In this document: piece after piece, positions 7,293 to 42,445 of the stretch
Numbering within the stretch: the first letter of the stretch is position 1
How the letters are laid out: each line of letters begins with the position of its first letter
Source of the DNA: Vulcanimicrobiota bacterium
Lineage (GTDB): Bacteria; Vulcanimicrobiota; Xenobia; Xenobiales; JADMJV01
Assembly: GCA_050250895.1 (NCBI GenBank)
Contig: JBFWNU010000001.1
Span: forward strand, 1-64,000
Reading direction: 5' to 3'
DNA: 64,000 nucleotides
The notes under the pieces: model-generated
Databases searched by the model: none
What the model saw: only the letters and a program-made list of their open reading frames with translations
What the model was told of the DNA's origin: nothing
Position numbers and translations under genes: made by a program

Positions 7293-7335
7293 AGTCTAGC
7301 CTGACGGGACTCACCAGGCATCGCCAGAATGTTAA
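7293..7335 (-). promoter_or_regulatory. Shared promoter motif, copy 1 (TAACAT-TCTG-GC ... TAGACT)
   Basis: TAACAT starts at 7334 and TAGACT at 7298, 36 bp apart; same geometry at three other loci. Confidence 0.65.
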
Positions 7336-7454
7336 GACCGAGTCATTTCCAAGATGCCTTCGAGGGGCTCGAAGGCGATCCTCCATGGCTCAGAAATGTC
7401 TCTCGACAGATTTGAGCCAGGGGTAGGGATTCCTCCCCGAGCTTGTTAAATTTC

Positions 7455-8666
7455 CTAACCAGTTTTCTCACACCTTACTCGGTAGCGGACGGCATTCCAA
7501 TAAGGCTTCTCCCCCCGTCGCCCCGCGAAGATGGTCAAAATATATTCCCCTGTAGACTCCGGTTCCACCCGAAAGGCGTAGCCACCCACGCGAGCCTCGG
7601 CAGTGACCTGCTCTTCCCCCCGGGGTCCCGACAATTGAGCGGTCAATTCCACGCTCGAGGGACAATCCACCACGACGCTGGCACTGGGCGAGGCGCTCAC
7701 GATTCCCCCCGCGTGGCTCCTGAGCTGTAGTCCATAATTAAAGTAGGCATCCCAAAGCCGGGGGCGCTGGCTGAACTCGTCGGGACTCACAGGCCGGCTC
7801 GAGAGCTGCCAGCGACTCTCATCGGGCAGATGAGTAAAGCTCATCCGTCCCGGATCGGCTAGGAAATACTCTGGATTGAACCGCCGCTCGAACCGGCCGC
7901 TGGAATTCACGAATCCCGTGCCCCAGGTACAGTCGACCAGACGCCAGGCCCCGTCGATCATCACCGCATTCCAGGTATGGCGTGTGGGAGCCCCTTCGGA
8001 GTGATAGCCTTTAGCTACTCCGTGGATAATGCGGGTCTGAAGACCTGCGCGCCGGGCCAGGCTGTCAAAGAGATAGGCATACTCATCCTCGGTGGCGGTT
8101 CCCCTCTTGAGGATCCGCTCGTCGCTGTCTGAACCGACCACCGGGGCGTCGAGGGTGCCCTCGTCGTAACTGATATGGGCAGTCATCCAGCGAAAGATCG
8201 CTCGTGCCTTCAACTTTTCACCCGCCACGTTAGTGGTCAAGCTCCGAGCCAACTGGTCGACGTCTGTCGACGAAGAAACGGAGAGCGCCAGCGCGTCAAC
8301 CTGGGCAAGCGTGGTCAGTTTGGGCGCTCTGGGCGCGACCGGCTTTGAGGTGGGCCGGGCCTGAGGACGCGTGCGTTCACTTCGATGGGCCGCTCGACGG
8401 GGGGCTTCCCAATGGATGGCCCGAGGTGGCTCCCAGTCTACCAGGCCAGGGTCCCCAACGGGCGTCTCGCTGGCGCGGGGTGTGGGTCGTAAGGGCTCAT
8501 CCGCAGGCGTCACTTCGGGTGTGGGGGGTGGCACCGGGGTGACCGCCACCCGAGGGATGGGAACTGGCTGCCCCGGAGTTCGGAAGGCCGTCACCGGCCG
8601 GGGCGAGGGAGACTGCGAGCACGCGCACGAGAGCAGCAAAGCCACTACCATGAACCGTCTCTTCAC
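7455..8666 (-). CDS. Lipoprotein with transglutaminase-like (KY/Cyk3-type) domain
   Basis: Lipobox-like LSCAC, Pro-rich linker, KARAIFRWMTAHISYD, HTWNAV, VDCTWG; Cys site reads GTATEDEYA. Confidence 0.8.
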   Translation of the reverse strand: MKRRFMVVALLLSCACSQSPSPRPVTAFRTPGQPVPIPRVAVTPVPPPTPEVTPADEPLRPTPRASETPVGDPGLVDWEPPRAIHWEAPRRAAHRSERTRPQARPTSKPVAPRAPKLTTLAQVDALALSVSSSTDVDQLARSLTTNVAGEKLKARAIFRWMTAHISYDEGTLDAPVVGSDSDERILKRGTATEDEYAYLFDSLARRAGLQTRIIHGVAKGYHSEGAPTRHTWNAVMIDGAWRLVDCTWGTGFVNSSGRFERRFNPEYFLADPGRMSFTHLPDESRWQLSSRPVSPDEFSQRPRLWDAYFNYGLQLRSHAGGIVSASPSASVVVDCPSSVELTAQLSGPRGEEQVTAEARVGGYAFRVEPESTGEYILTIFAGRRGEKPYWNAVRYRVRCEKTG

Positions 8667-9766
8667 TACAGGTGTCTACGCGCTCCCAGGTAACGACTCT
8701 TGAAGTAGGGGTCCTCGAGGCTGCCGATGGTGACCTGTTTGGCCCCTGAAGAAGCGTGCAGAAACTTGTGCCGACCTACATAGATGCCTACATGAGACGC
8801 ACCGGGGGCGTAGGTCTCGAAAAAGACCAGATCGCCCGGCTGCTCCTTCCCTTTGCGAATGGGGCGGCCGACCTCGAACTGAATATCGGCGGTGCGAGGC
8901 AGACGAACTCCGCTGCGACCATAGACCAGCTGGACGTAACCCGAGCAGTCGGCACCGGTGACCGACTCGCCACCCCACACGTAGGGAATACCCAGCAAAC
9001 TGCGAGCGGTGCGTAGCAAGCCATAGATGCGGCGGCCACGGCGTGAGGCGAGAGCCTGGCGGTGAGGCCTGGCCCCGCGAGTGGGGACCTCGATCACTTC
9101 GTGGTCGCTAAAAATCATCAGATTGCGATGCTGGGTGAACTTGGGAATCTCTTTGCCGAGCACACCAAACCCGGTGAGCAGGTTCCACTCCTCGGAGGTG
9201 GGGTCTTCGCTCAGACGAGGCAGGGCCTCGAGACCATCCTGGATGTCCGCTGGCGACTCCGCCGCCAGCACCGGACTGGGCACCTCGGGCTCGGGCAACT
9301 TATAGATGGGGTTGCCTTTAATCTTCTCCCAGGCGTAGGCCAGCTGGGCGTTCTCGGGCTTGTATTCCGGATTGGGCACGAAGAGAACGGTGCCCGGCTC
9401 GATCGAGCCTGATCGAACGGTCGGATTCATTTCCAGCAACGTTCGTCGGTCGGTCCCATAGTTCTCGGCGATGAGAGTCAGGTTTTCGGTGGGTCCAACT
9501 CGATGATAAGTATAGTAGGGCTCGGGCTCTTTCTGAGAAGGATCTGGAACGCACAACACATCGCCAGCGACCACTCGGCCCCCGCGTTGGGAAATGGTCG
9601 GGTTCATAGCCAGCAACTCGCCTCGCTCCAGGCCGTAGCGCTTGGCTACGGACGCGAGCGTATCGCTACCGTTCACCCTATAGTATAGATAGTGGTCCTG
9701 GGCCAAGACTGGCTCGATAGCCAGAAAAATCAGGGCCAAAAGGCACCACATGCCATGCATTCTCAT
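8666..9766 (-). CDS. LysM-LysM-NlpC/P60 peptidoglycan endopeptidase
   Basis: Signal peptide, two LysM repeats, PYVWGG...DCSG, GDLVFF, HVGIY, HAS. Confidence 0.93.
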   Translation of the reverse strand: MRMHGMWCLLALIFLAIEPVLAQDHYLYYRVNGSDTLASVAKRYGLERGELLAMNPTISQRGGRVVAGDVLCVPDPSQKEPEPYYTYHRVGPTENLTLIAENYGTDRRTLLEMNPTVRSGSIEPGTVLFVPNPEYKPENAQLAYAWEKIKGNPIYKLPEPEVPSPVLAAESPADIQDGLEALPRLSEDPTSEEWNLLTGFGVLGKEIPKFTQHRNLMIFSDHEVIEVPTRGARPHRQALASRRGRRIYGLLRTARSLLGIPYVWGGESVTGADCSGYVQLVYGRSGVRLPRTADIQFEVGRPIRKGKEQPGDLVFFETYAPGASHVGIYVGRHKFLHASSGAKQVTIGSLEDPYFKSRYLGARRHL

Positions 9767-11154: not shown

Positions 11155-11200
11155 CGGGGGCGGTTTGGGCCATTCACCCCCAACTCCTCCCGGCCGAGAT

Positions 11201-11243
11201 TTAACATTCCCGCCACAACCCGAAGTCCCAATTGTCATAGGCT
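11201..11243 (+). promoter_or_regulatory. Shared promoter motif, copy 2 (TAACAT-TCCC-GC ... TAGGCT)
   Basis: TAACAT at 11202 and TAGGCT at 11238, 36 bp apart. Confidence 0.65.
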
Positions 11244-11271
11244 TTCGGCGACCTCATCTCCAGGAGCAGAC

Positions 11272-11904
11272 ATGAACATCACGAGCCCTAACACCGCCCA
11301 GCGATTGGCCGCGGCCACCCGACCTCACCTGCCTGGCCAGGCCGACCCCAACGGTATCGGCGTAGCCCGGCTGGCCTCGGGCTGCGACGCCTTTCTGGCC
11401 GACGCCGGTGCGCCGAATCCCTACTCGAGCGACCTTCCCTCCGAGAAGACCAGGGACATCAGCGCAACCCTGAAAGAATTGGCCGAGTTGACCGCCGGCG
11501 GAGTCACCATCGGTCAACTGGGCGCAGCAACCATCGTCGTGGGCGGCCAGGCGCAACAGAAGGTCGACGAGCTCGACGCCGTCCGGCGCAGCCTGAAGAC
11601 CGCCTACAACAAATCGGTGGTGAAATCGATCGCCTGGATGGGAGCCACCGCGGGCGCCCTGGTGCTGGGCGGCATCCTTCCCAACCCGATTACCGGCCTG
11701 GTCATCGCAGGAGCGGCCGCTATGGCCATCCGTTCCATCACCAAAGCGCGCGCCAACCACAAAGAACTGGTCCAGCAACTGCCCCGCCTCGAGCAGGGCC
11801 TGGCGGTCAATCGCCAACTGGCGGCCGACTCGGTGTTTTTTGCCCCGCACTTGCAGGGCTGGAACGACCTGCTGGCCAGCCAGGATAGCGCCCGAGCAGC
11901 CTGA
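11272..11904 (+). CDS. Hypothetical protein, 210 aa, coiled coil plus two hydrophobic helices
   Basis: SD CAGGAG before ATG 11272 (MNITSPNTAQ...); hydrophobic hairpin SIAWMGATAGALVLGGIL/PITGLVIAGAAAMAI. Confidence 0.75.
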   Translation: MNITSPNTAQRLAAATRPHLPGQADPNGIGVARLASGCDAFLADAGAPNPYSSDLPSEKTRDISATLKELAELTAGGVTIGQLGAATIVVGGQAQQKVDELDAVRRSLKTAYNKSVVKSIAWMGATAGALVLGGILPNPITGLVIAGAAAMAIRSITKARANHKELVQQLPRLEQGLAVNRQLAADSVFFAPHLQGWNDLLASQDSARAA

Positions 11905-11906
11905 CC

Positions 11907-14454: not shown

Positions 14455-14461
14455 CCAGCCT

Positions 14462-14504
14462 CTAACATAGCGGCAACACACCCGCTGGGCGTGCGGGCTA
14501 TGGT
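14462..14504 (+). promoter_or_regulatory. Shared promoter motif, copy 3 (TAACAT-AGCG-GC ... TATGGT)
   Basis: TAACAT at 14463 and TATGGT at 14499, 36 bp apart. Confidence 0.65.
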
Positions 14505-14528
14505 GCCCTAAAGCAGGAGGTTCATCAA

Positions 14529-15002
14529 ATGAAGATTCAAAATTTCACGCCAACTCAGACTCTTACTCGTAAAGCGGCCCCCCCCGCCCAACCGCAAACC
14601 CTCGACGTATTCGAAGGTGGCTTTCGCGATGCGTCGCGCACGATGGGCATCTCGACCCTGGTGGGAGCGGCCGTTGGGGCTGCAGCCGTAGGGTTTGCCA
14701 CCTCGGGAATGTCGGGTGGAGCCGGCATGGCCGTGGGGGGCCTGGGCGGCGGACTGACGGCCGCCAGCGTCGTTGGCATCGGCACCGGAGCGGTAGCCGC
14801 GCACTTCACTCACGGTGACGGTTGGTCCAAGTTGGGCAGCTTCATGGTCGGCGCCATGGCCGGCGGCGCCGTGGGCGGCATCGCTGGAGCCATCGGTGGC
14901 GCTATGGTCGGCACGGGTGCTGGCAACGCTCTGGGATTCGCGGCCGGCGCGTTCGCTGGCGGAACCATCGGCTATTTTGTCGGTAAGGGCATTGCACGCT
15001 AA
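14529..15002 (+). CDS. Gly/Ala-rich glycine-zipper membrane protein
   Basis: SD AGGAGG; P/T/Q-rich N-terminus followed by repeated GxxxG helices. Confidence 0.75.
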   Translation: MKIQNFTPTQTLTRKAAPPAQPQTLDVFEGGFRDASRTMGISTLVGAAVGAAAVGFATSGMSGGAGMAVGGLGGGLTAASVVGIGTGAVAAHFTHGDGWSKLGSFMVGAMAGGAVGGIAGAIGGAMVGTGAGNALGFAAGAFAGGTIGYFVGKGIAR

Positions 15003-15486
15003 CGCCCAGACCATCGAACGCTTTTACGAAGCGTTCAGTCGGCGCGACCACGCCGGAATGGCCGCCTCCTATCACCGGGAGGTGGCCTTTTCCGATCCCG
15101 TCTTTCCCGCCCTCAGCGGCTGGCGTGCTTGCGCCATGTGGCGGATGCTGTGCGAGCGGGGCACCGATCTGATCGTCACCGCCAGCGGCATCGCAGCGAA
15201 TGACGGAGCCGGCAGAGCCTTCTGGGAAGCCCACTACACGTTCAGCCAGACCGGTCGCCCGGTCCACAACAAGATTCAGGCGGAATTCACCTTCCGCGAC
15301 GGTCTCATCCTGACCCATCGCGACACCTTCGACCTGCACCGCTGGGCCGGCCAGGCCATGGGCTTTCCCGGCAAACTGCTGGGCTGGGCGCCCTTCTTTC
15401 ACAAGAAGGTCCAGACCAACGCCAGTCTGGCCCTGGAGAAGTTCATCCAGAAGAACCAGCTGGCCGAGGCAGACTTTTTCTCTTAG
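14992..15486 (+). CDS. NTF2/SnoaL-like family protein
   Basis: TTG start; IERFYEAF...FSDPVF...WEAHYTFSQTGRPVHN...HRDTFD. Confidence 0.8.
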   Translation: MHANAQTIERFYEAFSRRDHAGMAASYHREVAFSDPVFPALSGWRACAMWRMLCERGTDLIVTASGIAANDGAGRAFWEAHYTFSQTGRPVHNKIQAEFTFRDGLILTHRDTFDLHRWAGQAMGFPGKLLGWAPFFHKKVQTNASLALEKFIQKNQLAEADFFS

Positions 15487-15493
15487 GTCGGCT

Positions 15494-16261
15494 ATGGTTG
15501 ACCGACACGTTTTCTATCGAGGGCAGACCCGAAGTTATCCGTTGGCAGCCCTGGCCCTGGCGAACACCGCCAGCCAGGTGGTCGAGCCGCTGCTGCCGCG
15601 CGAGAGCCTGGCGGGGTGGCCGAACGCAGCCTTTCTCGAAAGTCTATCCCTGGCCCGTCAACGGCTGCGAGACGACCCCACCGTGTCAGCCGCAGTAGCC
15701 GAGTTACTCCAGGCTCATCACGGACTCGAGCAGACCGTCGTCGACCCGCCGCGCCTGCGGGTCATCCTCCCCCGGGGCCACCAGCTCGAAGCCGCCAAGC
15801 CCGCCTACTACGCTCACCGGGACACGTGGTATGGCAATCCAAGAAGTCAACTAAACTGGTGGCTTCCCCTTCACGATGTCGAGCAGCAACAAACCTTCGT
15901 CATCTATCCCGAGGCCTTCAACCAACCTGTGGCCAACGACAGCCACGAGTTCGACTATGGCCACTGGCGCCAGCAAGTGGGATTTGCCAACTCGGCCGCC
16001 CCGAAAGGGGCTATCTATCCGCGTGCCCTCGGTAAGCTGACTCACTTGCAGACCCAGGGATTCGCGGCTCGGAAGGGTGACCTGCTGGTCTTTTCGGCCG
16101 CCCATCTGCATCAGACGCTGGCTTTCGACCACGGCCTACCCCGCTTTTCCATCGACTTTCGCACCGTCTACCTGCCCGACCACGAGGCGGGGCTGGGCGC
16201 GCCCGACCCCGACAATGCCAGCCGCGGGACTACCCTACCTGAATATCGCAGGTTGTCATGA
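15494..16261 (+). CDS. Putative Fe(II)/2-oxoglutarate dioxygenase (PhyH-like)
   Basis: HRD (HxD) motif, NWWLPL, GDLLVFSAAHLH (distal His), RFSIDFR. Confidence 0.7.
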   Translation: MVDRHVFYRGQTRSYPLAALALANTASQVVEPLLPRESLAGWPNAAFLESLSLARQRLRDDPTVSAAVAELLQAHHGLEQTVVDPPRLRVILPRGHQLEAAKPAYYAHRDTWYGNPRSQLNWWLPLHDVEQQQTFVIYPEAFNQPVANDSHEFDYGHWRQQVGFANSAAPKGAIYPRALGKLTHLQTQGFAARKGDLLVFSAAHLHQTLAFDHGLPRFSIDFRTVYLPDHEAGLGAPDPDNASRGTTLPEYRRLS

Positions 16262-18465
16262 TCCTGGAGAGGCTCGAAGCACTCTGTCGACGCCGACCGA
16301 CTCACCCGGCTATCGTTAGCGCCGAGGCCAGGTTGACCTATGACGAGCTCATGGTCGAAAGTCGCCGCCAGACCAAAAAAATCAGCGAACCGGTGGTGCT
16401 TGCCAAAGGCCGTTCCAGTGAGACGATCTGCCGGTGGTTGTCCGCCTGGATGGTCGGCAAGCCCTTTGTCACTCTCGATCCCACCTGGCCCAGAGCCCGT
16501 CAGCAACAATTGTGCTCGCTGCTCGAGCCGCCGCCGACGGAGCAACTTGCTTATCTGGTCTTCACCTCCGGGTCGACTGGGGGCCCCAAATTGGTCAAGG
16601 TGCCTCACACAGGCCTCTTGCCCGTGCTCGAGCACCAGATTGAGGTGTTTCAGATTCAACCTGAAAGCCGCTGCCTCTGGCTTCTCTCACCGGCTTTTGA
16701 CGCCTCGCTGTCGGACGTGTTCACAGCCCTGCTGGCCGGGGCCACGCTCTACATCGACGAACTCGGGTCTTTGCGCGAGCGACTCGCACGCCACCACATC
16801 ACTCACCTCGACCTGCCACCGGCATTGCTCAGCGCCCACGACAGCCTGCCCCCCCACCTGAAGACGCTGGTCATCGGGGGTGAGGTGTGTCCGCCGAATA
16901 CAGTGCGGCGGTTTGCCGGCCACCACCGCCTGTTGAACGTCTATGGCCCCAGCGAGGCCACCATCTGCACCAGCATTTCGTTGGGCACGCCCGATTGGGA
17001 CCGGGCTCTGCTGGGCCAACCCATACCCGGCGTCGAGTATCGAATCGTCGATGACGAACTCTTCGTCGGGGGCGACCACCTGGCCACCGGCTATCACCTG
17101 GCCCCCGAGCTGACGAACCGCAAATTCGTCGAACTCGATGGTTCGCGCTATTTCCGGACCGGGGACCGGGTGCGTCAACTCGACGGAGACTATGAGTTCC
17201 TCGGGCGCACCGACAGGCAGGTCAAGATCCGTGGCTGTCTGGTGGCCCTCGAGGAAGTAGAAACCCACCTGCGCCAGGCCCCGGGGGTGGGCCGGGCCGC
17301 CGTCGGCCTGAACGGCGACCAATTGGTGGCCCAACTCGAGGGTTGCCCGCTGGCTGCCGAGCGCTATCTTCGTGACCGCCTGCCCGACTTCATGATCCCG
17401 ACTCGTTTTGAAAGCTACCGAGGCGACGGCTCCAAAAGCACCTTCGTGGTGGAGCCGAATTCGCTCGACATCCTCAAGCGCTGTGCCGAGGCCCAGCAAA
17501 ACGGCCAGCGCCTGTCCCCGAGCGACTTCTTCCCACGCCTTGCCCAAGACCGTCCCTGCCCGGCCCGGCGCAAGCTTCGCCTCGGTCCGGCGGGACGGAC
17601 CTTGCTGACGGGCGGTTCGGGCTTTCTCGGAAGCCAATTGAGGAAACATCTCGGCAGCTGCCAACTCTATGCGCCCTCCCGAGCCGAAATGGACCTCGAG
17701 ACTCCCTTTGTTCCACCCCGGGTCGACACGATCATCCACTGTGCTGGACGGACCGCCCTGACCCTCTCGCGCTGGCAGCACGATCAACTCAACCTGGAAG
17801 GCACACGGCGACTATTGGAACTCGAAGCCCGTTTTCATTACATCTCGACGCTGGCCGTGCTGGTGGCCGGCCCCCGCTCCGGCGTCATCGACGAGACCAG
17901 CTCACCTCTGAGCCGGCCCCACGGCGCCTACGCCCGGAGCAAGCTGGCCGCCGAGCGCCTGGTGATGGCCAGCGGCCCGACCTGGGTCTATCGGCCTGGG
18001 CTGTTGGTTGGTGGCGCCCCTCGGCGTGACGACCAATTTCTAGCCTTCCTACGTGGCCTGGTCCGCTGGCGCTGCCTGCCCGACGGAGACTTCGAGAGAC
18101 TTCGGCTCGATCTGACTCCGGTCGACTTTGCGGCCCGCTCGATTGCCAGCCTGGCCGCGGTCGCTCCCCCGGGCGTCTACCACCTGGCCAACCGCCGCCC
18201 CCTGAGTCTGGCCGAGATCGTGGCATCGGCCCAGCGGCGGGGCTATTCCATCGCCAGAGTCCCCGCAACCCTATGGCTCGAGACCGTACGCGGCGACGAC
18301 CTGTTCCGCCTGAGCGTGCCTCGCTTGCTCGGCAACCCCGACCGGAGCCTCGATCTCTTTCTGGCCAGCGAGGTCGAGTTCGATTGTAGCCTGACCGAAA
18401 GCCTGACAGGCCTGCGCTGCCCTCCGCCCGAAGACCTGCTGGAGGCTTGTTGGCGCGATGTCTAA
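16258..18465 (+). CDS. NRPS-like adenylation-(vestigial carrier)-thioester reductase protein
   Basis: YLVFTSGSTGGPK, FDAS, NVYGPSE, FRTGD, GRTDRQVKIRG; NSL carrier-like Ser at 17461; LTGGSGFLG and YARSK SDR motifs. Confidence 0.85.
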   Translation: MILERLEALCRRRPTHPAIVSAEARLTYDELMVESRRQTKKISEPVVLAKGRSSETICRWLSAWMVGKPFVTLDPTWPRARQQQLCSLLEPPPTEQLAYLVFTSGSTGGPKLVKVPHTGLLPVLEHQIEVFQIQPESRCLWLLSPAFDASLSDVFTALLAGATLYIDELGSLRERLARHHITHLDLPPALLSAHDSLPPHLKTLVIGGEVCPPNTVRRFAGHHRLLNVYGPSEATICTSISLGTPDWDRALLGQPIPGVEYRIVDDELFVGGDHLATGYHLAPELTNRKFVELDGSRYFRTGDRVRQLDGDYEFLGRTDRQVKIRGCLVALEEVETHLRQAPGVGRAAVGLNGDQLVAQLEGCPLAAERYLRDRLPDFMIPTRFESYRGDGSKSTFVVEPNSLDILKRCAEAQQNGQRLSPSDFFPRLAQDRPCPARRKLRLGPAGRTLLTGGSGFLGSQLRKHLGSCQLYAPSRAEMDLETPFVPPRVDTIIHCAGRTALTLSRWQHDQLNLEGTRRLLELEARFHYISTLAVLVAGPRSGVIDETSSPLSRPHGAYARSKLAAERLVMASGPTWVYRPGLLVGGAPRRDDQFLAFLRGLVRWRCLPDGDFERLRLDLTPVDFAARSIASLAAVAPPGVYHLANRRPLSLAEIVASAQRRGYSIARVPATLWLETVRGDDLFRLSVPRLLGNPDRSLDLFLASEVEFDCSLTESLTGLRCPPPEDLLEACWRDV

Positions 18466-19450
18466 AGGAGTCGTCCTGGGCAAATTCATGCCGGTCCACA
18501 ACGGCCACCGCTATCTCATCGACTTTGCCCGCCACTACTGTGACGAGCTCACCATCCTGATCGGAAGCCTGCCCGGCGAACCCATCCCTGGCGAACTCCG
18601 GGTGGCCTGGCTGCGAGAACTCTTTCCAAATCAGCGGGTCGTGCACATCACCGATGAGAATCCCCAACTGCCTCACGAACACCCCGACTTCTGGGCGATC
18701 TGGCGCCGCAGCCTCGAACGCGCTCTAGGAGGAGAGCAGCCCGACTTTCTGTTCGCCTCGGAAGAATACGGCCAGCGGTTGGCCGAAGAACTGGGCGCAA
18801 CCTTCGTGGCCACCAGCGGCTGGCGCGAAATCGTGCCCGTCAGTGCCACCCAGATTCGCGAAGATCCCGCAGCTTATTGGGACCACATCCCCAGTTGCGT
18901 GCGGCCCCATTTTGTCAAGAAGATCTGTCTCTTCGGGCCCGAGTCGACCGGGAAGACGACCCTGGCCCGCGCTCTGGCCGAGCACTATCAGACAGTAGCC
19001 GTACCGGAATATGCTCGCGGCTTTCTTGAGTGCAAAGGCGCCTTTGAAGCATCCGATCTCGAAGCGATCGGGCGTGGTCAACTAGCTTCTGAGCAGGCCC
19101 TGGCCAGACGAGCCCGCCACCTGCTCTTCTGCGATACCGACCTGCTCACCACCAGGATCTGGGGTCGCTGGCTGCTAAACACGACCAATCCCTGGCTCGA
19201 GAGCATGCTTGACGAGGCAGCCTATGACCTGACCCTGCTGACGGATGTGGATCTGGCCTGGCAGCCTGACGCCGTGCGGTATCTACCTCACCAGGGACCG
19301 GCTTTTCTCGACTGCTGTATCCAAGAACTCGAAAAGCACAACCGCCCCTACGTAATGATTCGTGGGGCGGGAGAAGAGCGCTTCGCGGCGGCCCTGGCGG
19401 CGGTAGAAGAGTGGCTTAGAGACGCCAGTAAACAGCGCCGGTCTGGCTGA
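18458..19450 (+). CDS. nadR: NadR-like NMN adenylyltransferase / ribosylnicotinamide kinase without HTH
   Basis: GKFMPVHNGH (HxGH), SATQIR, GPESTGKTT, EYAR, CDTD. Confidence 0.85.
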   Translation: MSKGVVLGKFMPVHNGHRYLIDFARHYCDELTILIGSLPGEPIPGELRVAWLRELFPNQRVVHITDENPQLPHEHPDFWAIWRRSLERALGGEQPDFLFASEEYGQRLAEELGATFVATSGWREIVPVSATQIREDPAAYWDHIPSCVRPHFVKKICLFGPESTGKTTLARALAEHYQTVAVPEYARGFLECKGAFEASDLEAIGRGQLASEQALARRARHLLFCDTDLLTTRIWGRWLLNTTNPWLESMLDEAAYDLTLLTDVDLAWQPDAVRYLPHQGPAFLDCCIQELEKHNRPYVMIRGAGEERFAAALAAVEEWLRDASKQRRSG

Positions 19451-22232: not shown

Positions 22233-22235
22233 CGC

Positions 22236-30193: not shown

Positions 30194-30215
30194 CGTGCAT
30201 TTGCCGGATGTTACA

Positions 30216-32545: not shown

Positions 32546-32574
32546 TTGACGGACGATCCCAGGCGTGCTAGCCT
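32546..32574 (+). promoter_or_regulatory. Sigma70-type promoter of vapBC
   Basis: TTGACG-17bp-TAGCCT with TG extension. Confidence 0.6.
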
Positions 32575-32610
32575 AAAGGCAGAAGGTGGATTTTTTCACA
32601 GAAGGTGGAC

Positions 32611-33253: not shown

Positions 33254-33266
33254 ACGGCCACGATCT

Positions 33267-34086: not shown

Positions 34087-34101
34087 CACAACCAAAGCCG
34101 A

Positions 34102-34689: not shown

Positions 34690-34781
34690 GACAACTTCTC
34701 TTTTCTGCAAAATGAGCTGGAATGATATTTCCCCGGAAGAAATGTCGACTCCTTTCGCGTTCGCGAGGTTTCACCCGGGCT

Positions 34782-34790
34782 TGTGGATAA
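34782..34790 (-). promoter_or_regulatory. Single perfect DnaA-box consensus
   Basis: TGTGGATAA (reverse complement TTATCCACA) in the divergent intergenic region. Confidence 0.35.
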
Positions 34791-34801
34791 CTCCTAAGCC
34801 T

Positions 34802-37800
34802 ATGGATCTAGCCCAATTCTCGGGCCTCACTCTCGAGCGACAACTGGCCTACCTTGACGAGGCCCTGGCCGAGGGGCAACGGGGCCAACTGCTAGAGATG
34901 GCGGCGGCCCTGCGGGATGGCGCGCCGATCAGCTGGCTGGTGGGTCGACTGCGCCAGCTGGGGTGGTTTGGCCAGCCGGCCAACCAGCAGTCTTTCGGCC
35001 ATTTCCTGACGGGTCTTGAGGACACCGCCATCCAGGCCAGCCTCAAAGGGGCGGCCGGCGACCCGGGCGTGGCCGCGGCCGTGTTCGAAGCCCTGCGCTC
35101 CATCGAGCTGGCCAAGCTCTCGGCCATGTGCTTGCTAGACCGCTTTCTCAAGCACAACGACCCCGACCGGCGCGACCGATACCTGGGGCAGTTGGTCGAG
35201 GAGTGCTGCAACTTGCTCGAGGGCGGCCAGTGCCCAAGCCTAGAACAACTGGTGCGCCTGCCGGCCCGGGCGCTGCACCGGCTGCAACAGGCGGCCCAGC
35301 AGGGCGGGGTGACGGACCGGTTTGAACAAGCCCGGCAACAGCTGGCTCGCCAGGTCATCAGCATTCTCGAAGCCGCCCCTAAGGGCGTCTCGCAGTCCAA
35401 CGCCGAAGAGCTGCTGTCGCGCCGGGTCTACACCGACCCCGGGCACTTTCTCATCGAGCTGCTGCAGAACGCCGACGATGCCGAGGCCCGCACCTTCCGG
35501 GTCGAGTTCTCGACCCAGCACGTGCTGGTCTGGCACGACGGCCTGCCCTTTGACGCCCGCGACCTGGTCGGGGTGACCTCGATTGGCCAGACCACCAAGC
35601 GCAAGCAGCAGATCGGCTTCTTCGGAGTCGGCTTCAAGTCGGTCTACGAGGTGACCGACCGGCCCCGCATCTATTCCGATGTCTATCAGTTTGAAATCGC
35701 CGACGTGTCCATTCCTCGCTACCTGCACCAGCGACCCGAGTGGCTGCCGGCCGAAGGCACCGCTCTCATCTTGCCGTTACGGGCCCCTGACGATCCCGAC
35801 CGCTCACCGGAAGGGCTGTTCCAGCGGGCCCGCCGCCTCGACCCCTGCGTGCTGTTGACGCTCCGAGAGCTGCGTTGTATCGAGTTTCGGCTGGCTGACG
35901 AGAGCTATCGCCTGGAGCGTTTTGATCAGGGCGAACTGAGCGCCATCCAGGTCGGGTCGACCCGCCGGGTCTTTGCCCTGGAACGACGCCGTTATAGCTA
36001 CCAGGGCGCCCGCGAGCAGAATCGGCCCGACAACACCGAGGTGTGCGTGGGCCTCTTGCTGAGCGAGCCCGGCCGGCCGCTGGCCTTTCCGCCCAAAGCG
36101 GCCACCGTCTACAGCTATCTACCCACCGACGAACATACCGGGCTGAAGTTCTTCATCCAGGGCCATTTCGATGTCCCTGTCGACCGTGAGCGCATTTCGC
36201 ACGAGTCTGACTGGAACCGCTGGATCCTGGCCCAGGTGCCCGAGCTGGTCGAGGCCCTGGCCCGGCGCTTCGGAGCCGGCATCCTCGAGGTGTTGCCTCT
36301 GGCTGAAGAGATGCTTTCGCCGCTATTCTCCGGTCTGCCCGAGGCCATTTATGCCCGTCTGCAAGAGGTCGAGTTGCTGCCCGGGCACGACGGCCAGCTG
36401 CACCCGCCCCGGCGGGTGGTGCTGGCCCGGCCAGAAGTGGTCTCGCTTTTCGCCGACCACTCGCAGCGTTACTGTTTTCTCTCGCCCGAGGTGGGCGAAC
36501 GCCCGCGCAAACTGGCTCAGGCCCTGGGTTGCCGCGAGTTTGGGGTGGAAGAGTTGGTGTCCGACCTGGAACAGGGTCTGCTACCGCCAGCGGTGGACTG
36601 GCCTCACTTCTACGATCTGTTGCTCGAGGAGCTCGAGCGCCTCGAGCGCCAGCAAAGCGGCCTGGACGAGTGGGTAACCCGACTGCAGGCCTGCCTGCTG
36701 GTGCCCGATCGTGACCAGCAGTTGCGCCCCCTGAATCAGGTGGCCCGAGCCGAGGGGCACCTGGCTGAGCTGTATGCCGGACTCGTGCCGCTGGTCTGGC
36801 CAGAACTGGTGGGCCGTCCGCGGGTCGAGACCCTGTTTGACCGGCTGGGGATGCGGCGTCTGGACGGGGAACGCCTGCTCGACGACCTGGCCCGCGACGT
36901 GACCCCCTTTCTGGCCCGTTTCGAGGCGCTCTATGCCTATCTCACCGAGGCTCCCTGGACGGTCACCGAAAGGGCCTGCCTGCTGCCCATCTTCCCCGCG
37001 GCCGGCGGCGGATTTGGCCGGCTGGCTCGCAACCCCGACGATGTGGAAGGCCTGTTTCGGGCCGACCCTCCCGAGGTGGTCGAGCTGCTCGAGGCACGCC
37101 GCTATCTGGCTCACCATTTTGCCGACCATCCCGTCCTCGAGACCATCCGGGTCGAGTCCACCGGCCTCAGCGAGGTGCTACTGGCCATGGCGCGGGGCCA
37201 CTGGCAGCCCGACGACGGCCAGAAAACCAAGCTGCTCGAGTTGCTCTTGTCCCACGGCCAGAGGCTGACAGCGGCCAATCTGGGGCTGCTGTTCGAGCTG
37301 CCGCTCTTCGCCAATCAGGCCGGAGCCTTCTGCCGACTGTCCGGCCTCTACCGTCCGGCCTCGCCGGCCCTGGTCGAGCTGCTCGGGCCCCAGTTCTTTC
37401 TTGACGCCGAGGCCCTTTCAGGCCAGGTGGCCGCCCGCCTCAACCTCTTGCCCTATCTAGAGCAGGCCACTCCCGAGTTGCTGGTGGCCTGGCTGGCCGA
37501 AAGGAAGTTGCCGCCCACCCAGACCCTGGCCTATCTGGCCAGCCAGGTCCAGAGCCTCAACCAGGATGTGCTCGAGCGCCTTTTGAGCCTGCCCCTGTTC
37601 GACGGGCTGCCGCTGGGCCGCCGGCCCCAGGCTGGCGTCTTGTGCCGCTGCCAGCCCGGTTTCGAGCAAGTCTTTGCGTGCCTGGGCGTCAACGTGCTTG
37701 AACCTGAGCAATCGCAACTGGTGGCGCCGCTGCTCGAGGCGGCCGGCTGGACCCCTCTGGGCCTCGAAGAGCTGGTCTCGACCCTGGCCGACCGCCAGCC

Positions 37801-40800
37801 CCAGCTCGAGCAGTTAGAAGTGGTGCAATCGGCCCTGCTGGCTCATCGACAGGCCTTGCTCGAGCGCTTTTCCACCTCGCTGCTGGGCAGCCTGGCCGTA
37901 TGGCGAAACGCAGCCGACCAGGTGGTGTCGGCGAGCCGACTGGTCGATGATCCCGAGCTGCTCGAGCTGTTGCCCGATCCAGGCGCCACTCCCGTCGAAC
38001 AGCTTTTACTGCCGGCGCTAGACGACTATCAGACCTGCAAGCCCCAGGTCTATCTCAACGACTGGCTGCGCCGCAAGGCCCGCCTGGGTCAGCCCCTAGA
38101 AGCCCAGCCCGTGCCCCTCAACGAGCTCGAAGGGGTGATGGCCGTGGCCCGCCGTCTGCCCGAGGGGCAGTTGCTGGTGGTCACTGCCGACCAGCGGCTG
38201 GGCGACCAGTTGTTGCCCATGGCCGCACCGACCACCATCGCACTTTTACCCGACCAGGATTTTCTTCATCCCGACTGGCCCCCCGAACTCGCTCCGGGAG
38301 CGCGCCGCTTGCCGGCCTACGCCGTGCTGGCCAGGCTGATCGACCTGGAACAGCCAGAAGTGCGCCAGCGTTTCTACGGCTGGTTGCTCGAGTGCCAGGG
38401 CGAGATATTCACCGACCCCGAGGCCCGCCGCAGCCTGGCCGAAGACAAGCTGTTTCTCTCGTCAGGTGGACGCTGGCTGGCCGCCCAGGAGCTGGTGCTC
38501 GACCCCGACTTTCCCGATCTCGACATCGACTGGCTGCCTCACCCCGAGATCCCGGCCGAATGTCTCGAGCTGTTGCGGCGCCAACTCGACGTGGGCAGCC
38601 CCGACCCTGAAGAGGTGTTGCAGGCCCACCTGCTGCCCGCCTATCACGCTCGCCTCAAGCAAGGCCGCGAAGGGCCGCTGCTCGACTATATCATCAAGCT
38701 GACCACCCGGCTGCCGGCCCGCCTGCTGCGCGCGCTCGTGGGCTCTTTGCCGGTGCGCGACATCAGCGGGCTGGTCCAGCCCTTCGAGGCGCTGGTTCTG
38801 CCGCCAGCCCACTGCCCGCCGCTGGTCACTATCCCGTGCCCGGATGGCTATCAAGAACGCCGCGAATTCTTCGAAAAACTGGGCATGGCCCGGGTGCCCA
38901 GCCGCCATCACCTGGAGGCCGCCTTGCGAGTGACGGGGCTGGCCGACTGCGCGGCCCTGGTCACAAGTCTGGCTGCCTGGCTGCGCGAGCACGACCTATC
39001 CGAGCTGCGAACGCTGGCCCGAGACACGGCCTGGCTCTTCGATGGCCAGGCTAAAAAGCGTTATCCCACCGAGCTGTTGAGCCCCCACCCCGAAGTCGAG
39101 GCCCTGGCCGGCACCTTCCCCGAACTGTATCCCCATCCCGACCTGTCGGCCTTGCTCGACGCGCGCCTGCTCGAGTGGCTGGGGCTGCGCACGGCCAAAG
39201 ACCTCGATTTTCCTGATGTGGTGCGCAATCTGCTGGAGCGGGTCAAGGCTGGTCAGGCGGTCGGCCAGCATCTCTATCGCTTTCTCGAAGAGGGTCTGAC
39301 CCGCGGCTCGATCGACCCCGACCAGTTGCACCGAGCCCTGGCCGACCAGGCCTTCATTTACTGCGACGACGGCCGCTATCGCCGTCCCGATCAGGTCTTT
39401 GCGGTCCCGGTCTTTCGCTGGTTTGGCGACCGGCGCGGGTGTTGGGAGTCGGCCCGCGACTTTCCCCGCCTTTGCCAGCTCTTCTCCATCTCCGACCGCC
39501 TCGAGCCCTCGGCCATCCTCTCGTTTCTCGAAGAGATCGCCCGCGCCCCCGCGGCTTCGCTCGAAGAAGAACCAGCTCTGCCCCGCATGCTGCGAGCCTG
39601 TTACGCCGAACTGGTGGCCACCGGGTCGACGGTGCCCACCGCCTGGCCGGTCATCCTGGCCCGCGGCCCGCGCCTGGTGGCCAGCCACCGTCCGGGCCTG
39701 GTGCGCAGCGATACGCCGACGCTCGAGGCGCTTTTCGCCGAGGTCGGCGAGCTGTTGGTGGCCGAACCCGGCGGTCCGCAAGACGCGGTGGCCCTCGACA
39801 TCTTCTATGCTCGCCAGGGCATTCGCCGCCTGCGCGATGCCTATCGGGTCAGCGTCGACGGCCGTTCGGGCCGGGACGTGACCGAGCAGGCCGCGGCCGA
39901 ATTACTGGCCGTGCGCTCGCTCTTGCGGGCCCTGCTCGAGGTGGCTCCTCGCGTCAGGCTGCAACGGAGCGGCCTGGAAAATGGCGGCTGGCTCTACAAA
40001 GAGCGTCTCGGCGGTCTGGCGGGCACGGCCACGATTCGCCTCATCGACGGCCTCCAGGTGGTTTATCAACTCGACGGAGTGGGCTCGGTGTCGCGCCGGG
40101 CGGCGGCCGCCTATGACCCGGGTAAACCTGCTCTGCTGCTGGATCTGGCCAGCGCGCGCGAGCCGGGCCAGGCGGCCGTGGGCCTGGCCGAAGCCCTGGT
40201 GAGTTGCCTCTATGAGGGGCCGGGCCAGGAGCAGCTCGTCGACATCCTCGAGCTACTCATCCCGCTGGGTCGGGCCGAGGCCATGCACGCTTATCTCGAC
40301 CGCCGGCACTTTCCCGCCAGCGCCTCGGCGCGGCGTCCGGTGGATCTGCTGCTCGAGCGCCTGGGCGAGATTCTCGACTATCGCCTGCATGAGCGGCTGG
40401 CCCAGGTCTTTCCCCAACTGGCCGAGGCCGACTTCGGCCGTTGGCGAGGCGACGGCCTGGCCCCGCGCCTCGAGCCCCTGCTCGGCCAGCCGAGTTGGCC
40501 CCGCCAGGTGGCCACCCGCCTGCTCGACGAGCTGGGCCTCAAAGCGCCCGATGGCGAGTTGATTAGCGCCCTGGCCGAGATGCTGAGCCAGCCGCAGCTG
40601 TCCCTGCCCAGCCAGTTAGCGCCCAGCCAGCCGGCCCCGGCACCGGTGGCTCCCAGCCAGGAAGAACCCGAGATGGTGCCCGCCCCGGTGGCCGACGAGC
40701 CCGAACGACCGGCCTTTTGGGACCGCCTGCTCTCCTGGGTGCCGGCCGCTCGCCAGCCGGAAGAAGCCGGCCCCATCCAATTCCCCGACAACAGCCTGGT

Positions 40801-42043
40801 CCCGATGCCGGGGGTCTTGCCCCAACTGGGTCTACGCCCCGAGCATATGCGGCAAATGCTAGAAAACCCTCCCGAAACCCGTCTGACCCATCACCCGGCG
40901 CGGCTGTCGAGCCCTCACATCTACGGCCTGCAGGGAGTAGGCGGAAGGTTCGATCCGGCCGACCAGACCTATCTGCCGGTGGCCTTGAAACTGGGCAAAG
41001 GCACCGGCGTGTCGACCCGCCCCCTCACCCTCCGGGGGCGGGTGCTGCCCGGTCTGAGCCTTTTGCCGGTGCCCCTCTATAGCCGAATGAAAGAGCGTCC
41101 CCGCGTCTTTGGCCGAGCCGGCAGCGTGCGCATCAGCGGCCCCGACCCGCTGGGCCAGTGGTATCTCGAAGTGAAGGGCGAGCAATCGGTGGGAGTCCGC
41201 TACGAAGTCGAGCTGACCGAGATTCCGCTGCTCGAGGGCCGAGGCCTTCCCAGCCACGACCCTGCCCTGGTCGAGCCCACTATGCCTCTGGCCGAGCTGC
41301 CCCAGCGAGCCCAGCGCTGGATCGAACAAACCGGCCAGGCAGGTCTGGCCCCATGGCGGGCCGCCCAGCTGGCCTGCGAGTTCGTGCGCACTCACTATCT
41401 CTATGACGAAAGCTATTCGCTGCGACCCGAAGTAGAAAAAGCCCGCCGTCGCTTGCGCAGCGGGCAGGGCAACCACCATCTACAGCTTCTTCACGCTTCG
41501 GCCGACGAGGTACACCTGGGACGCGGCATCTGCTACGAGCTCAACCTGATGGTGGCCGAACTGTTGCGGCATCTCGAACTCCCTTCGCTGGTAGCCACCT
41601 GCTGGGTGTTCGACCAGGGAGCCCTGGATCGGGCCGACCATCTGGTCTGCCTGGCCCTGCTCGACTCGTCGAGCGGGCCCTGCCTGGTGCCGCTGGACGC
41701 CTGCGCCGACCGCCGCGGCCCGCGCCACATTCTGGGCCACGACCCCGAGCCTTCGCCCTGGGGAAGCGACCTCGCCTCGGAGCGCGAGCGCCTCGAGCAA
41801 GAGCTGGAAGTGCTGGCCCGGGTCTATCACCTGGTCTTCGACCGCCATCCCCCCTCCCCCGCCGCCGCTCGCGGCGAGCTCGCTCAGAAACTGGGCGAAA
41901 CGGCGCTAGGCCTCATGCTGGCAGCCGTGCGCGGCGACCTGAAAAAACTCGACCAGGTTCCGGAAGGCGTGGCGGACCTGGTCGTGCGGGGCTGGCTCAA
42001 AGTGCTCGAGCAGCCCGAATATTCGGTTGTGCCTAACGACTAG
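34802..42043 (+). CDS. Giant (~2410 aa) sacsin/NOV-like GHKL ATPase protein with C-terminal transglutaminase-like domain
   Basis: ELLQNADDA, HDGLPF, IGFFGVGFKSVY, FIQGHFDVPVDRE; C-terminal YLYD...GICYELN...DHLV...LDAC; start 34802 preferred over 34712. Confidence 0.85.
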   Translation: MDLAQFSGLTLERQLAYLDEALAEGQRGQLLEMAAALRDGAPISWLVGRLRQLGWFGQPANQQSFGHFLTGLEDTAIQASLKGAAGDPGVAAAVFEALRSIELAKLSAMCLLDRFLKHNDPDRRDRYLGQLVEECCNLLEGGQCPSLEQLVRLPARALHRLQQAAQQGGVTDRFEQARQQLARQVISILEAAPKGVSQSNAEELLSRRVYTDPGHFLIELLQNADDAEARTFRVEFSTQHVLVWHDGLPFDARDLVGVTSIGQTTKRKQQIGFFGVGFKSVYEVTDRPRIYSDVYQFEIADVSIPRYLHQRPEWLPAEGTALILPLRAPDDPDRSPEGLFQRARRLDPCVLLTLRELRCIEFRLADESYRLERFDQGELSAIQVGSTRRVFALERRRYSYQGAREQNRPDNTEVCVGLLLSEPGRPLAFPPKAATVYSYLPTDEHTGLKFFIQGHFDVPVDRERISHESDWNRWILAQVPELVEALARRFGAGILEVLPLAEEMLSPLFSGLPEAIYARLQEVELLPGHDGQLHPPRRVVLARPEVVSLFADHSQRYCFLSPEVGERPRKLAQALGCREFGVEELVSDLEQGLLPPAVDWPHFYDLLLEELERLERQQSGLDEWVTRLQACLLVPDRDQQLRPLNQVARAEGHLAELYAGLVPLVWPELVGRPRVETLFDRLGMRRLDGERLLDDLARDVTPFLARFEALYAYLTEAPWTVTERACLLPIFPAAGGGFGRLARNPDDVEGLFRADPPEVVELLEARRYLAHHFADHPVLETIRVESTGLSEVLLAMARGHWQPDDGQKTKLLELLLSHGQRLTAANLGLLFELPLFANQAGAFCRLSGLYRPASPALVELLGPQFFLDAEALSGQVAARLNLLPYLEQATPELLVAWLAERKLPPTQTLAYLASQVQSLNQDVLERLLSLPLFDGLPLGRRPQAGVLCRCQPGFEQVFACLGVNVLEPEQSQLVAPLLEAAGWTPLGLEELVSTLADRQPQLEQLEVVQSALLAHRQALLERFSTSLLGSLAVWRNAADQVVSASRLVDDPELLELLPDPGATPVEQLLLPALDDYQTCKPQVYLNDWLRRKARLGQPLEAQPVPLNELEGVMAVARRLPEGQLLVVTADQRLGDQLLPMAAPTTIALLPDQDFLHPDWPPELAPGARRLPAYAVLARLIDLEQPEVRQRFYGWLLECQGEIFTDPEARRSLAEDKLFLSSGGRWLAAQELVLDPDFPDLDIDWLPHPEIPAECLELLRRQLDVGSPDPEEVLQAHLLPAYHARLKQGREGPLLDYIIKLTTRLPARLLRALVGSLPVRDISGLVQPFEALVLPPAHCPPLVTIPCPDGYQERREFFEKLGMARVPSRHHLEAALRVTGLADCAALVTSLAAWLREHDLSELRTLARDTAWLFDGQAKKRYPTELLSPHPEVEALAGTFPELYPHPDLSALLDARLLEWLGLRTAKDLDFPDVVRNLLERVKAGQAVGQHLYRFLEEGLTRGSIDPDQLHRALADQAFIYCDDGRYRRPDQVFAVPVFRWFGDRRGCWESARDFPRLCQLFSISDRLEPSAILSFLEEIARAPAASLEEEPALPRMLRACYAELVATGSTVPTAWPVILARGPRLVASHRPGLVRSDTPTLEALFAEVGELLVAEPGGPQDAVALDIFYARQGIRRLRDAYRVSVDGRSGRDVTEQAAAELLAVRSLLRALLEVAPRVRLQRSGLENGGWLYKERLGGLAGTATIRLIDGLQVVYQLDGVGSVSRRAAAAYDPGKPALLLDLASAREPGQAAVGLAEALVSCLYEGPGQEQLVDILELLIPLGRAEAMHAYLDRRHFPASASARRPVDLLLERLGEILDYRLHERLAQVFPQLAEADFGRWRGDGLAPRLEPLLGQPSWPRQVATRLLDELGLKAPDGELISALAEMLSQPQLSLPSQLAPSQPAPAPVAPSQEEPEMVPAPVADEPERPAFWDRLLSWVPAARQPEEAGPIQFPDNSLVPMPGVLPQLGLRPEHMRQMLENPPETRLTHHPARLSSPHIYGLQGVGGRFDPADQTYLPVALKLGKGTGVSTRPLTLRGRVLPGLSLLPVPLYSRMKERPRVFGRAGSVRISGPDPLGQWYLEVKGEQSVGVRYEVELTEIPLLEGRGLPSHDPALVEPTMPLAELPQRAQRWIEQTGQAGLAPWRAAQLACEFVRTHYLYDESYSLRPEVEKARRRLRSGQGNHHLQLLHASADEVHLGRGICYELNLMVAELLRHLELPSLVATCWVFDQGALDRADHLVCLALLDSSSGPCLVPLDACADRRGPRHILGHDPEPSPWGSDLASERERLEQELEVLARVYHLVFDRHPPSPAAARGELAQKLGETALGLMLAAVRGDLKKLDQVPEGVADLVVRGWLKVLEQPEYSVVPND

Positions 42044-42387
42044 CGGTGGCGACGCCGCTCGCTGTGATAGTGGCGGAAGTGGCGCGGCTGCTGGGGCGTG
42101 ACGATCACCGGGCCGACGCCGTAACCCTGGTTGTTGTAGTAACCGTAGTTGGTCTGGCCGTATCCGTAGTAATAAGAGTTGTCGTAGTAGTTGCCGTTGG
42201 CATAGAAGCCCTGGTTGCCGTAGTACGGCGGCACCTGAACGGTGACGGTGGTACGCGAGGCCGAAACGGGCGGTCCCATAGCGCTCGAGGGCCCGACCAT
42301 CACTTTCGAGCCGGGAGCGTCCAGGGTCTGGGCGGCAGCCGGACCGATGAGGGCGAGTAGAATTGTCAGTGCTAGTAAATGTCTCAT
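42040..42387 (-). CDS. Small secreted Tyr/Gly/Asn-rich hypothetical protein
   Basis: Signal peptide ending AAA, SD GGAGG, low-complexity YGN segment. Confidence 0.75.
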   Translation of the reverse strand: MRHLLALTILLALIGPAAAQTLDAPGSKVMVGPSSAMGPPVSASRTTVTVQVPPYYGNQGFYANGNYYDNSYYYGYGQTNYGYYNNQGYGVGPVIVTPQQPRHFRHYHSERRRHR

Positions 42388-42402
42388 TTTGCCTCCGGTT
42401 CC

Positions 42403-42445
42403 ATCCTATCCTATTGTCATTATGAAACCATTGCTAAAATGTTAA
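42403..42445 (-). promoter_or_regulatory. Shared promoter motif, copy 4 (TAACAT-TTTA-GC ... TAGGAT)
   Basis: TAACAT starts at 42444 and TAGGAT at 42408, 36 bp apart. Confidence 0.65.

Follow-up and report, generated by a model that had tools for sequence, protein, structure and literature searches.

The first 64,000 nucleotides of contig JBFWNU010000001.1 of the Vulcanimicrobiota bacterium assembly GCA_050250895.1 (hereafter the window; C1:1-64000) contain four intergenic regions in which a TAACAT box is followed, at one fixed distance, by a hexamer TAnnnT resembling a -10 element. This raises the question of whether the four boxes belong to a common promoter class and, if so, which protein would act on it and which genes it would serve. 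The boxes are true members of a genome-wide promoter class, defined by a direct repeat with an 11-bp period and by its rigid distance from the -10 box. Judging from sequence, a single response regulator of a two-component system most likely switches the class on, and the genes that it is predicted to drive encode an export machine resembling a flagellum as well as many degradative enzymes devoid of ordinary export signals. The genome is 9.50 Mb in size, in 17 contigs, with 63% G+C, and the assembly is 99.6% complete; its gene set was obtained with a crude, purpose-made caller (8412 genes covering 91% of the sequence).

The T of TAACAT lies at 7334 (-), 11202 (+), 14463 (+) and 42444 (-), and the hexamers TAGACT, TAGGCT, TATGGT and TAGGAT each begin 36 nt past it, as the initial annotation had reported; the Shine-Dalgarno sequences that it described are likewise present at all four sites, with an ATG 68, 70, 66 and 57 nt beyond the T, respectively. 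Promoter 1 comprises a box at 7319-7335 (-), with a strong distal unit TTAACA and a weak proximal unit GGCGATG, and the -10 hexamer at 7293-7298 (-), with a predicted transcription start near 7286; it precedes a gene for a 276-aa FecR-domain protein with a Sec-like N-terminus (6436-7266, -; Pfam FecR, 1.2e-06). Promoter 2 has the box TTAACA-N5-GCCACA at 11201-11217 (+), the hexamer at 11238-11243 (+) and a predicted start near 11250, and its target (11272-11904, +) encodes a 210-aa protein with the N-terminus MNITSPNT..., i.e., of the M-x-I type. This protein gives a faint NCBIfam match to the alpha-xenorhabdolysin binary toxin subunit A (E 1.6e-4, 21 bits with a cut-off of 125), which is a lead only. 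Promoter 3 consists of CTAACA-N5-GCAACA at 14462-14478 (+) and the hexamer at 14499-14504 (+), with a predicted start near 14511, and lies upstream of a gene for a 157-aa protein beginning MKIQNFTPTQ... (14529-15002, +). In promoter 4 the box TTAACA-N5-GCAATG (42429-42445, -) is followed by the hexamer at 42403-42408 (-), a predicted start near 42396 and a gene for a 115-aa protein with a Sec-like N-terminus (42040-42387, -). All four start positions rest on the 36-nt spacing and on a rule derived from leaderless genes that is given below. The targets had been described as secreted or membrane proteins of unknown function; no Pfam family was found for the products of genes 2, 3 and 4, and that of gene 1 has the FecR domain.

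The full pattern of the initial annotation is matched four times in the window and 0.00 times in 100 dinucleotide shuffles, but it had been written from the same four sites, so this post hoc comparison is circular and independent support was sought genome-wide. The pattern itself has six matches in the whole 9.5-Mb genome. The shorter motif TAACA-N5-GCAA occurs 51 times, versus 8 times with a spacer of N4, 19 with N6, 30 with N3 and 11 with N7; 40 of the 51 matches are intergenic, and 26 are located 30-120 nt before a start codon on the same strand. An iterated position weight matrix (PWM, scores in bits) converges on tGTTAACA-nnn-tG(G/T)(T/C)AACA, in which an 8-bp unit is repeated in the same direction after a linker of 3 bp. 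Among the upstream regions, two AACA sequences on the same strand are 11 nt apart 87 times, compared with about 8-10 times at neighbouring spacings, and a weaker rise is seen at 20-22 nt; the period of the direct repeat proposed for the four sites is thus exactly 11 bp across the genome. When 4990 upstream regions were scanned, the PWM gave 1298 matches scoring 8 bits or more and 579 scoring 13 bits or more; ten dinucleotide shuffles of the same regions gave 262 +/- 13 and 25, respectively. Genome-wide, 812 unique sites reach 13 bits or more. Divergent intergenic regions hold 326 of them (1.2 per kb), tandem ones 335 (0.74 per kb) and convergent ones 21 (0.135 per kb), and 128 fall within genes. 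Sites 2, 3 and 4 of the window score 17.5, 15.6 and 15.9 bits. Site 1 reaches 7.8 bits owing to a good distal half (10.5) and a poor proximal one (-3.4), and is a weak member of the class.

The symmetry of the box deserves attention, since its idealised consensus is its own reverse complement, a perfect palindrome, and this weighs against a direct-repeat activator. A regulator of another family, CRP/FNR-like or another helix-turn-helix class II activator, might bind as a symmetric dimer or tetramer to the 19-bp palindrome TGTTAACA-N3-TGTTAACA centred at -41.5, which is the classical class II position; moreover, 103 of the 915 PWM matches score on both strands. The conservation, however, follows the direct repeat: the best-kept base positions are A3 (0.96), C4 (0.90) and A14 (0.94), the AAC being kept in both units, and T stands at mirror positions 11 and 12 in just 0.32 and 0.45 of the sites. 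Of the 335 sites in tandem regions, 246 score better on the strand of the gene, some promoters carry three or four units arrayed in steps of 11 bp, and the motif is identical to known sites of the OmpR family, discussed below. A symmetric binder of this kind is therefore considered unlikely, and the box is a promoter-associated, directional direct repeat.

The position of the box relative to the -10 element is equally characteristic. With the T of the distal TAACA counted as column 1, so that column 37 lies 36 nt after that T, the hexamer TAnnnT starts in column 37 at 145 and in column 38 at 49 of the 1297 gene-oriented matches, and in about 10 at each of the other columns; lesser peaks at columns 26, 48-49, 57-59 and 68-70 are separated by steps of one helical turn. 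The strict architecture, i.e., a box with TAnnnT starting at column 37 or 38, is found upstream of 193 genes, versus 2.3 +/- 1.8 in shuffles, and the fixed spacing first noticed at four sites thus holds in many more; with all phased positions counted, the number of genes rises to 417. The large, dispersed regulon extrapolated from the window finds its counterpart in these at least 193 promoters of strict architecture. Between the -10 box and the end of the proximal unit there are 20 bp, and 31 bp separate it from the end of the distal unit, whose conservation equals or exceeds that of the proximal one.

Ordinary promoters coexist with this class: TAnnnT is found at +23 in 42 of the 152 TTGACA hexamers (TTGACA-N17-TAnnnT). 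The hexamer TTAACA (n=292) has TAnnnT at +23 in 4 cases, at +37 in 27 and at +38 in 24, and the missing +23 peak indicates that the box is something other than a -35 hexamer. Alignment of the strict promoters gives ACAnnn in the -35 window, with no TTG at -35 to -33, and C followed by A/G is seen at the expected start site; the box promoters are devoid of a -35 element. The start site itself is fixed by leaderless genes. TAnnnT lies exactly 12 nt ahead of the called start codon in 234 cases genome-wide, versus 20-50 at other distances, and leaderless mRNAs appear to be common in this organism. Twenty strict promoters show the same 12-nt distance. With the start so fixed, the distal TAACA is predicted to span -48 to -44 and the proximal unit -38 to -33, and the box would be centred near -41.5.

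The same geometry bears on whether an alternative sigma factor, such as one of the two sigma-28-like factors encoded near flagellar genes, could use the box as its -35 element. Two FliA-like sigma genes are present, one of them inside a box-controlled operon, and TTAACA differs from TTGACA by one mismatch. Nevertheless, the -10 box and its spacing to the start are the same as in housekeeping and leaderless promoters, the spacers of 20 bp (proximal unit) and 31 bp (better-kept distal unit) fall outside 16-19 bp, up to four units follow one another in helical phase, and there is no likeness to the sigma-28 consensus. An alternative sigma factor is thus scarcely tenable as an explanation. Neither the sigma-54 string GG-N10-GC nor the sigma-28 string TAAA-N15-GCCGATAA fits the aligned sites, and the two promoter readings were rejected.

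The window holds a fifth box, which the initial annotation overlooked although it is the strongest of all (GTTTACA-N4-TTAACA, 63008-63025, +, 24.1 bits). No TAnnnT is found at any phased position after it. The gene downstream, at 63077-63409, encodes ClpS.

Related genomes were grouped into families f1, f2 and f3, the last being a small-genome family. The exact string TTAACA-N5-KYAACA occurs 8-27 times per genome in f1 and f2, and the reversed-pattern control 0-5 times. Upstream of flgB, 20 loci were scanned, that of the genome studied here and those of 19 relatives, one further flgB locus being left out. An array of three or four units stands in the same place in the former and in 18 of the 19 relatives, including f3; the sole miss among the 19 is a locus cut 223 nt before flgC. 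Homologues of target gene 3 with 36-42% identity gave seven loci, six in relatives and one belonging to a paralogue in the same genome, and in five of the seven the box is followed by a -10 box at column 37 or 38. The motif is thus kept before homologous genes in other genera and families. In a survey of 61 genomes of the phylum it is abundant in many families (one 2.5-Mb genome has 211 matches, versus 13 for the control), and no exact match was found in any of 21 of these genomes, which belong to three families. The programme had been called lineage-specific, and this part of the proposal does not stand: the box is in use across much of the phylum.

A repeat of this form is well known in one family of regulators. 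The published MtrA site of C. glutamicum is the 19-bp sequence (A/G)TAACAATttn(A/G)TAACAAT, from which MtrA activates when the site is upstream of a promoter's -35 region (PMC3353115), and the published WalR consensus is TGTWAH-N5-TGTWAH (PMC4168254). The present motif is an MtrA site in one register and a WalR site in the other, TGTTAA-N5-TGTTAA fitting the WalR consensus. With a probability of about 0.8 the box would be the activator site of some OmpR-type regulator. An OmpR/PhoB-family activator acting over the -35 region is what the initial annotation had put forward, and the 11-bp repeat, the fixed distance to the -10 box, the missing -35 element, the association with promoters and the conservation all support it; that a protein binds the box, which protein this is and that its effect is activating are predictions drawn from the sequence. 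The regulator would be a winged-helix response regulator of the OmpR/PhoB family for which the boxes are tandem sites, two molecules (up to four at some promoters) binding head-to-tail on tGTTAACA units spaced by 11 bp. From a distal unit whose TAACA begins with T at -48 and a proximal unit at -38 to -33, they would recruit the housekeeping RNA polymerase to promoters having a TAnnnT -10 box and no -35 hexamer, i.e., by class II activation centred near -41.5.

The genome encodes 19 canonical OmpR-type regulators, and the small f3 genomes help to narrow the choice, as they keep the flgB box and have just three such regulators each. Their counterparts in the genome studied here are the product of C4:483019-483717 (76-79% identity), a KdpE-like regulator (C1:2077072-2077785, 68-70%) and the product of C3:281648-282331 (47-51%). 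The first of these, an MtrA/WalR-like regulator, is the predicted binder, with odds that are even or slightly better. Its best solved relative is MtrA (8.7e-68), followed by RegX3 (8.2e-62) and PhoP, and YycF receiver domains match at 1e-43. An orthologue with at least 72% identity is found in 40 of the 61 phylum genomes, 34 of which have exact motif matches; in the other 21 the best regulator match has at most 55% identity and there are zero motif matches. This phyletic co-occurrence of regulator and motif is weak evidence and is taken as supportive only.

Several observations weigh against this assignment. The co-occurrence may reflect one or two evolutionary events, the 21 motif-free genomes forming three families, whose base composition also suppresses the control pattern (0-1 matches); furthermore, six f3 genomes with an orthologue of the contig C4 regulator have no exact match to the strict pattern. 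No box of at least 8 bits lies upstream of the regulator gene, and there is hence no sign of autoregulation. The adjoining kinase is a 348-aa PAS-HisKA-HATPase protein, unlike the membrane-bound MtrB and WalK, and has no HAMP domain; the neighbours at this locus are genes for a laccase-like oxidase and a luciferase-like oxygenase, and neither a WalK-type kinase nor yycHI genes were seen there. The crude gene caller will have given some wrong start codons. Finally, there is a competing candidate in the two-component operon C1:3127947-3129987, which stands behind a phased box of 21.8 bits.

This last operon, or one of the other 17 OmpR-type regulators, might act by the same mechanism in place of the contig C4 protein, a smaller but real possibility. 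The regulator encoded at C1:3129316-3129987 and its kinase follow a 329-aa gene with the 21.8-bit box, as expected for positive autoregulation, and in an alignment the recognition helices of the family are too alike for specificity to be read from them. Against this operon stands the fact that its regulator is the most divergent of the 19 Trans_reg_C matches and that none of the three OmpR-type regulators in the f3 genomes, which keep the flgB array, is closely similar to it.

The contig C4 regulator, as the favoured binder, may be compared with its nearest known relatives. It shares with MtrA a site of 8-bp direct repeats with a 3-bp linker and a TAACA core, activation from upstream of the -35 region, and membership of the OmpR family, MtrA dimerising on phosphorylation and being the best solved relative of the candidate. 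The system differs from that of MtrA in having hundreds of promoters with one rigid -10 distance, a short partner kinase of the PAS type rather than an MtrB-like one, and targets comprising a flagellar-type operon and many peptidases, MtrA controlling osmoprotection and a few cell-wall genes. With WalR/VicR (YycF) of Firmicutes it has in common the 11-bp period and the consensus, and cell-wall hydrolases occur among its targets, a small minority of two SLT plus amidase_3 proteins among 80; the regulon is far larger than that of WalR and mostly unrelated to wall turnover. The CtrA box of Alphaproteobacteria, TTAA-N7-TTAAC, has the same geometry as the TTAA-N7-(T/G)(T/C)AAC found here, and CtrA is likewise an OmpR-family regulator over early flagellar operons and a broad programme, but no CtrA-named chain is found among the 31 solved relatives of the contig C4 regulator at E <= 1e-30.

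Pho boxes, bound by PhoB in E. coli and PhoP in B. subtilis, mediate class II activation at promoters without a -35 element. They are tandem repeats one helical turn apart in place of the -35 element, with 2-4 units of a TT(A/T)ACA-like sequence, and so resemble the boxes described here. The latter differ in the 20 bp that separate the proximal unit from the -10 box and in a regulon content not related to phosphate. The box might then be a Pho box proper and its targets a phosphate-starvation regulon of the PhoB/PhoP/RegX3 type. The TT(A/T)ACA units at 11 bp are reminiscent of the B. subtilis PhoP box, RegX3 ranks second among the solved relatives of the contig C4 regulator, and two PTP-like phytases and a PLD-domain protein are among the targets. 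This reading is nevertheless very unlikely: PhoU and PstS-type (PBP_like_2) proteins gave no match in the genome, other phosphate-uptake families lying outside the search, so that a Pho regulator would lack its core targets, and at least 193 promoters serving a flagellar-type operon, 15 peptidases among 80 targets, a SecA-like protein, CarD and ClpS make a regulon far wider than any Pho regulon known to us. As a separate observation, nearly all control genomes have PhoU and PBP_like_2. The mechanism proposed for the box is a familiar one, in which an activator of the OmpR family acts from direct repeats, here with the MtrA/WalR consensus. Out of the ordinary are the scale, the rigid geometry, the breadth across the phylum and the content of the regulon, of which scale and content are new.

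That content was surveyed with Pfam for the 80 best-scoring of the 193 strict targets, the window genes being left out. Fifteen are peptidases: seven of family S8, two each of C11 and M14, and one each of M13, M64, M36 and C2. Two GDSL lipases, two PTP-like phytases, the two wall hydrolases mentioned above and two PilZ proteins follow, along with single cases of a PLD protein, an amylase, a GHL10 hydrolase, a haem peroxidase, an amine oxidase, a microviridin-type precursor, a SecA-like protein and CarD; the flagellar-type proteins are FlgB, a FlgE/F/G-like and a FliK-like protein. No Pfam family was assigned to 41 of the 80. The precursor (C1:2826510-2827130) is a box-controlled 206-aa protein with a microviridin/marinostatin-type protease-inhibitor core (NCBIfam, 1.5e-15) and an N-terminus of the M-x-I type.

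The initial annotation had envisaged a regulon of exported proteins. Many targets are indeed typical extracellular enzymes, but Sec-like N-termini, judged by a crude rule, are rarer among them than in the background (5% versus 15%). The N-terminus common among the targets is M-x-I/V-x-S/T/P followed by a stretch rich in proline, alanine and glutamine, often with D-x-V-x-L-S/G. A simple rule for type III-like signals, which asks for I or V as the third residue, for a first stretch of 11 residues free of D and E, for 50% or more of S/T/P/Q/A/N and for the absence of a hydrophobic run, is fitted by 167 of 4990 proteins, and a box of at least 8 bits precedes 93 of these 167 versus 814 of the 4823 others (odds ratio 6.2, p = 1.5e-28); for the strict promoter class the odds ratio is 10.4. 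Among 39 subtilase (S8) paralogues, 19 of which have a box, the crude rule finds one Sec-like N-terminus, and most start with M-x-I/V or M-I-x and continue with a polar, proline/alanine-rich stretch. Many type III-like N-termini run on into glycine-rich membrane segments. A profile HMM of the N-termini, weak and of low complexity, gave 55 matches, of which 20 were new, and since only 2 of these 20 have a box, the N-terminal type is not confined to the regulon. Homology of the common N-termini to FlgM was rejected, as none of 12 N-terminal pieces of 90 aa matched the FlgM model even at E <= 10 (the true FlgM of the genome gives 2e-16), and no NCBIfam model covers the N-terminus in the 25 proteins examined.

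The flagellar genes are arranged in separate sets, and the genome carries two full FlhA genes. The first set (C1:555-595 kb) is free of boxes and encodes flagellin, FliD, FliS, FlgK, FlgL, FlgM, FlgH, FlgI, a sigma-28-like factor and MotAB; all matches of this genome to flagellin, FlgK and MotA_N above the curated cut-off fall within it. The second set is the flgB-flhA operon (C1:1459-1476 kb; C1:1459000-1476200), with boxes before flgB (24.2 bits) and before a flgE-like gene (18.7 bits), and a third operon (C1:1290-1295 kb; C1:1290000-1295300), extending from a FliK-like gene to the second sigma-28-like gene, has a box of 19.3 bits. Four f3 relatives, G014, G016, G018 and G020 (2.4-2.6 Mb, 96-98% complete), have FlgC, FliG and FlhA of the box-controlled type and give no match to the flagellin, FlgK_D1 and MotA_N models, which suggests that they possess a flagellar-type basal body or export apparatus devoid of filament and stator. 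The number of FHIPEP genes was tried as a correlate of the motif and dropped, because all 20 relatives have at least one full copy and it does not discriminate. Besides the full FlhA genes, there are eight proteins whose match to FlhA is confined to its cytoplasmic C-terminal half (FHIPEP about 260-656), their N-termini being different. They are encoded at C6:529281-530666, C1:2013805-2014935, C1:2473679-2476609, C7:121829-122929, C1:1126937-1128199, C7:117220-118743, C1:2008491-2009819 and C8:31611-33212, and one of them has a box; we know of no such paralogue family.

These gene sets invite the proposal that the box acts as master switch for a protein-export system derived from a flagellum, in which an apparatus and its box-controlled cargo are expressed together and motility is no longer driven. 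As a whole this is conceivable but doubtful, and the export of the targets through a flagellar-type apparatus is put forward as a tentative, rather unlikely hypothesis. The flgB-flhA apparatus, conserved across the order, would no longer serve motility; its cargo would comprise over a hundred box-controlled proteins, namely subtilases, clostripains, carboxypeptidases, lipases, phosphatases and many orphans. The signal on them would be M-x-I/V with a polar, proline/alanine-rich stretch, often with D-x-V-x-L-S/G, in place of a Sec signal peptide, and the eight FlhA cytoplasmic-domain proteins could be substrate receptors. Flagellar type III export kept without a filament has been reported for the basal bodies of Buchnera (PMC8109811) and for the FT3SS of Lysobacter enzymogenes (PMC7688988). 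The likeness to these systems lies in the retention of basal-body and export genes, with flagellin not found in four relatives that are 96-98% complete. In contrast to them, the apparatus coexists here with a complete second flagellum in large genomes, and a promoter box is common to the apparatus and many enzyme genes, their export being hypothetical. Large-genome members of the phylum have been suggested to be predatory, and the expression of their secretion systems and degradative enzymes was found to differ between transcriptional states (PMC9259500); the main text of that paper mentions neither type III secretion nor a flagellum. Titles and the beginnings of abstracts on Eremiobacterota and flagella contain no promoter motif, the motif string combined with the phylum lying outside that search.

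As for the surroundings of the four promoters, an IS66-family transposase gene (4028-5437) lies near site 1. Divergent from promoter 4, at 42490-43307, a HepT-like RNase gene stands beside a gene for a Pol-beta-type nucleotidyltransferase, and the two are likely to form a HepT/MNT toxin-antitoxin pair. The gene at 34802-42043 encodes a 2413-aa protein whose sole Pfam match is one sacsin-type domain (residues 210-301). The genes at 14529-19450 were taken, from their sizes and N-termini, for flgM, flgN, flgK and flgL, and this guess was ruled out by Pfam, which gives SnoaL, an AMP-binding reductase and others.

The promoter class is easily recognised by its order of elements (the box, 20 bp, TAnnnT and a start 12 nt on), and it provides about 200 to 400 predicted transcription starts together with a regulon map in a phylum in which almost nothing is known on gene control. 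As the candidate regulator is 72-98% identical across the phylum, one binding experiment would carry over to many genomes. The box places many orphan genes in one group with an export operon of flagellar type and with enzymes of extracellular type that have no signal peptide, and thereby makes it testable whether these proteins are cargo of the apparatus and which signal the kinase senses. If the export proposal is true, a flagellum would here have been turned independently into a machine for secretion, with a large set of cargo proteins and under the control of a regulator of the MtrA/WalR type.

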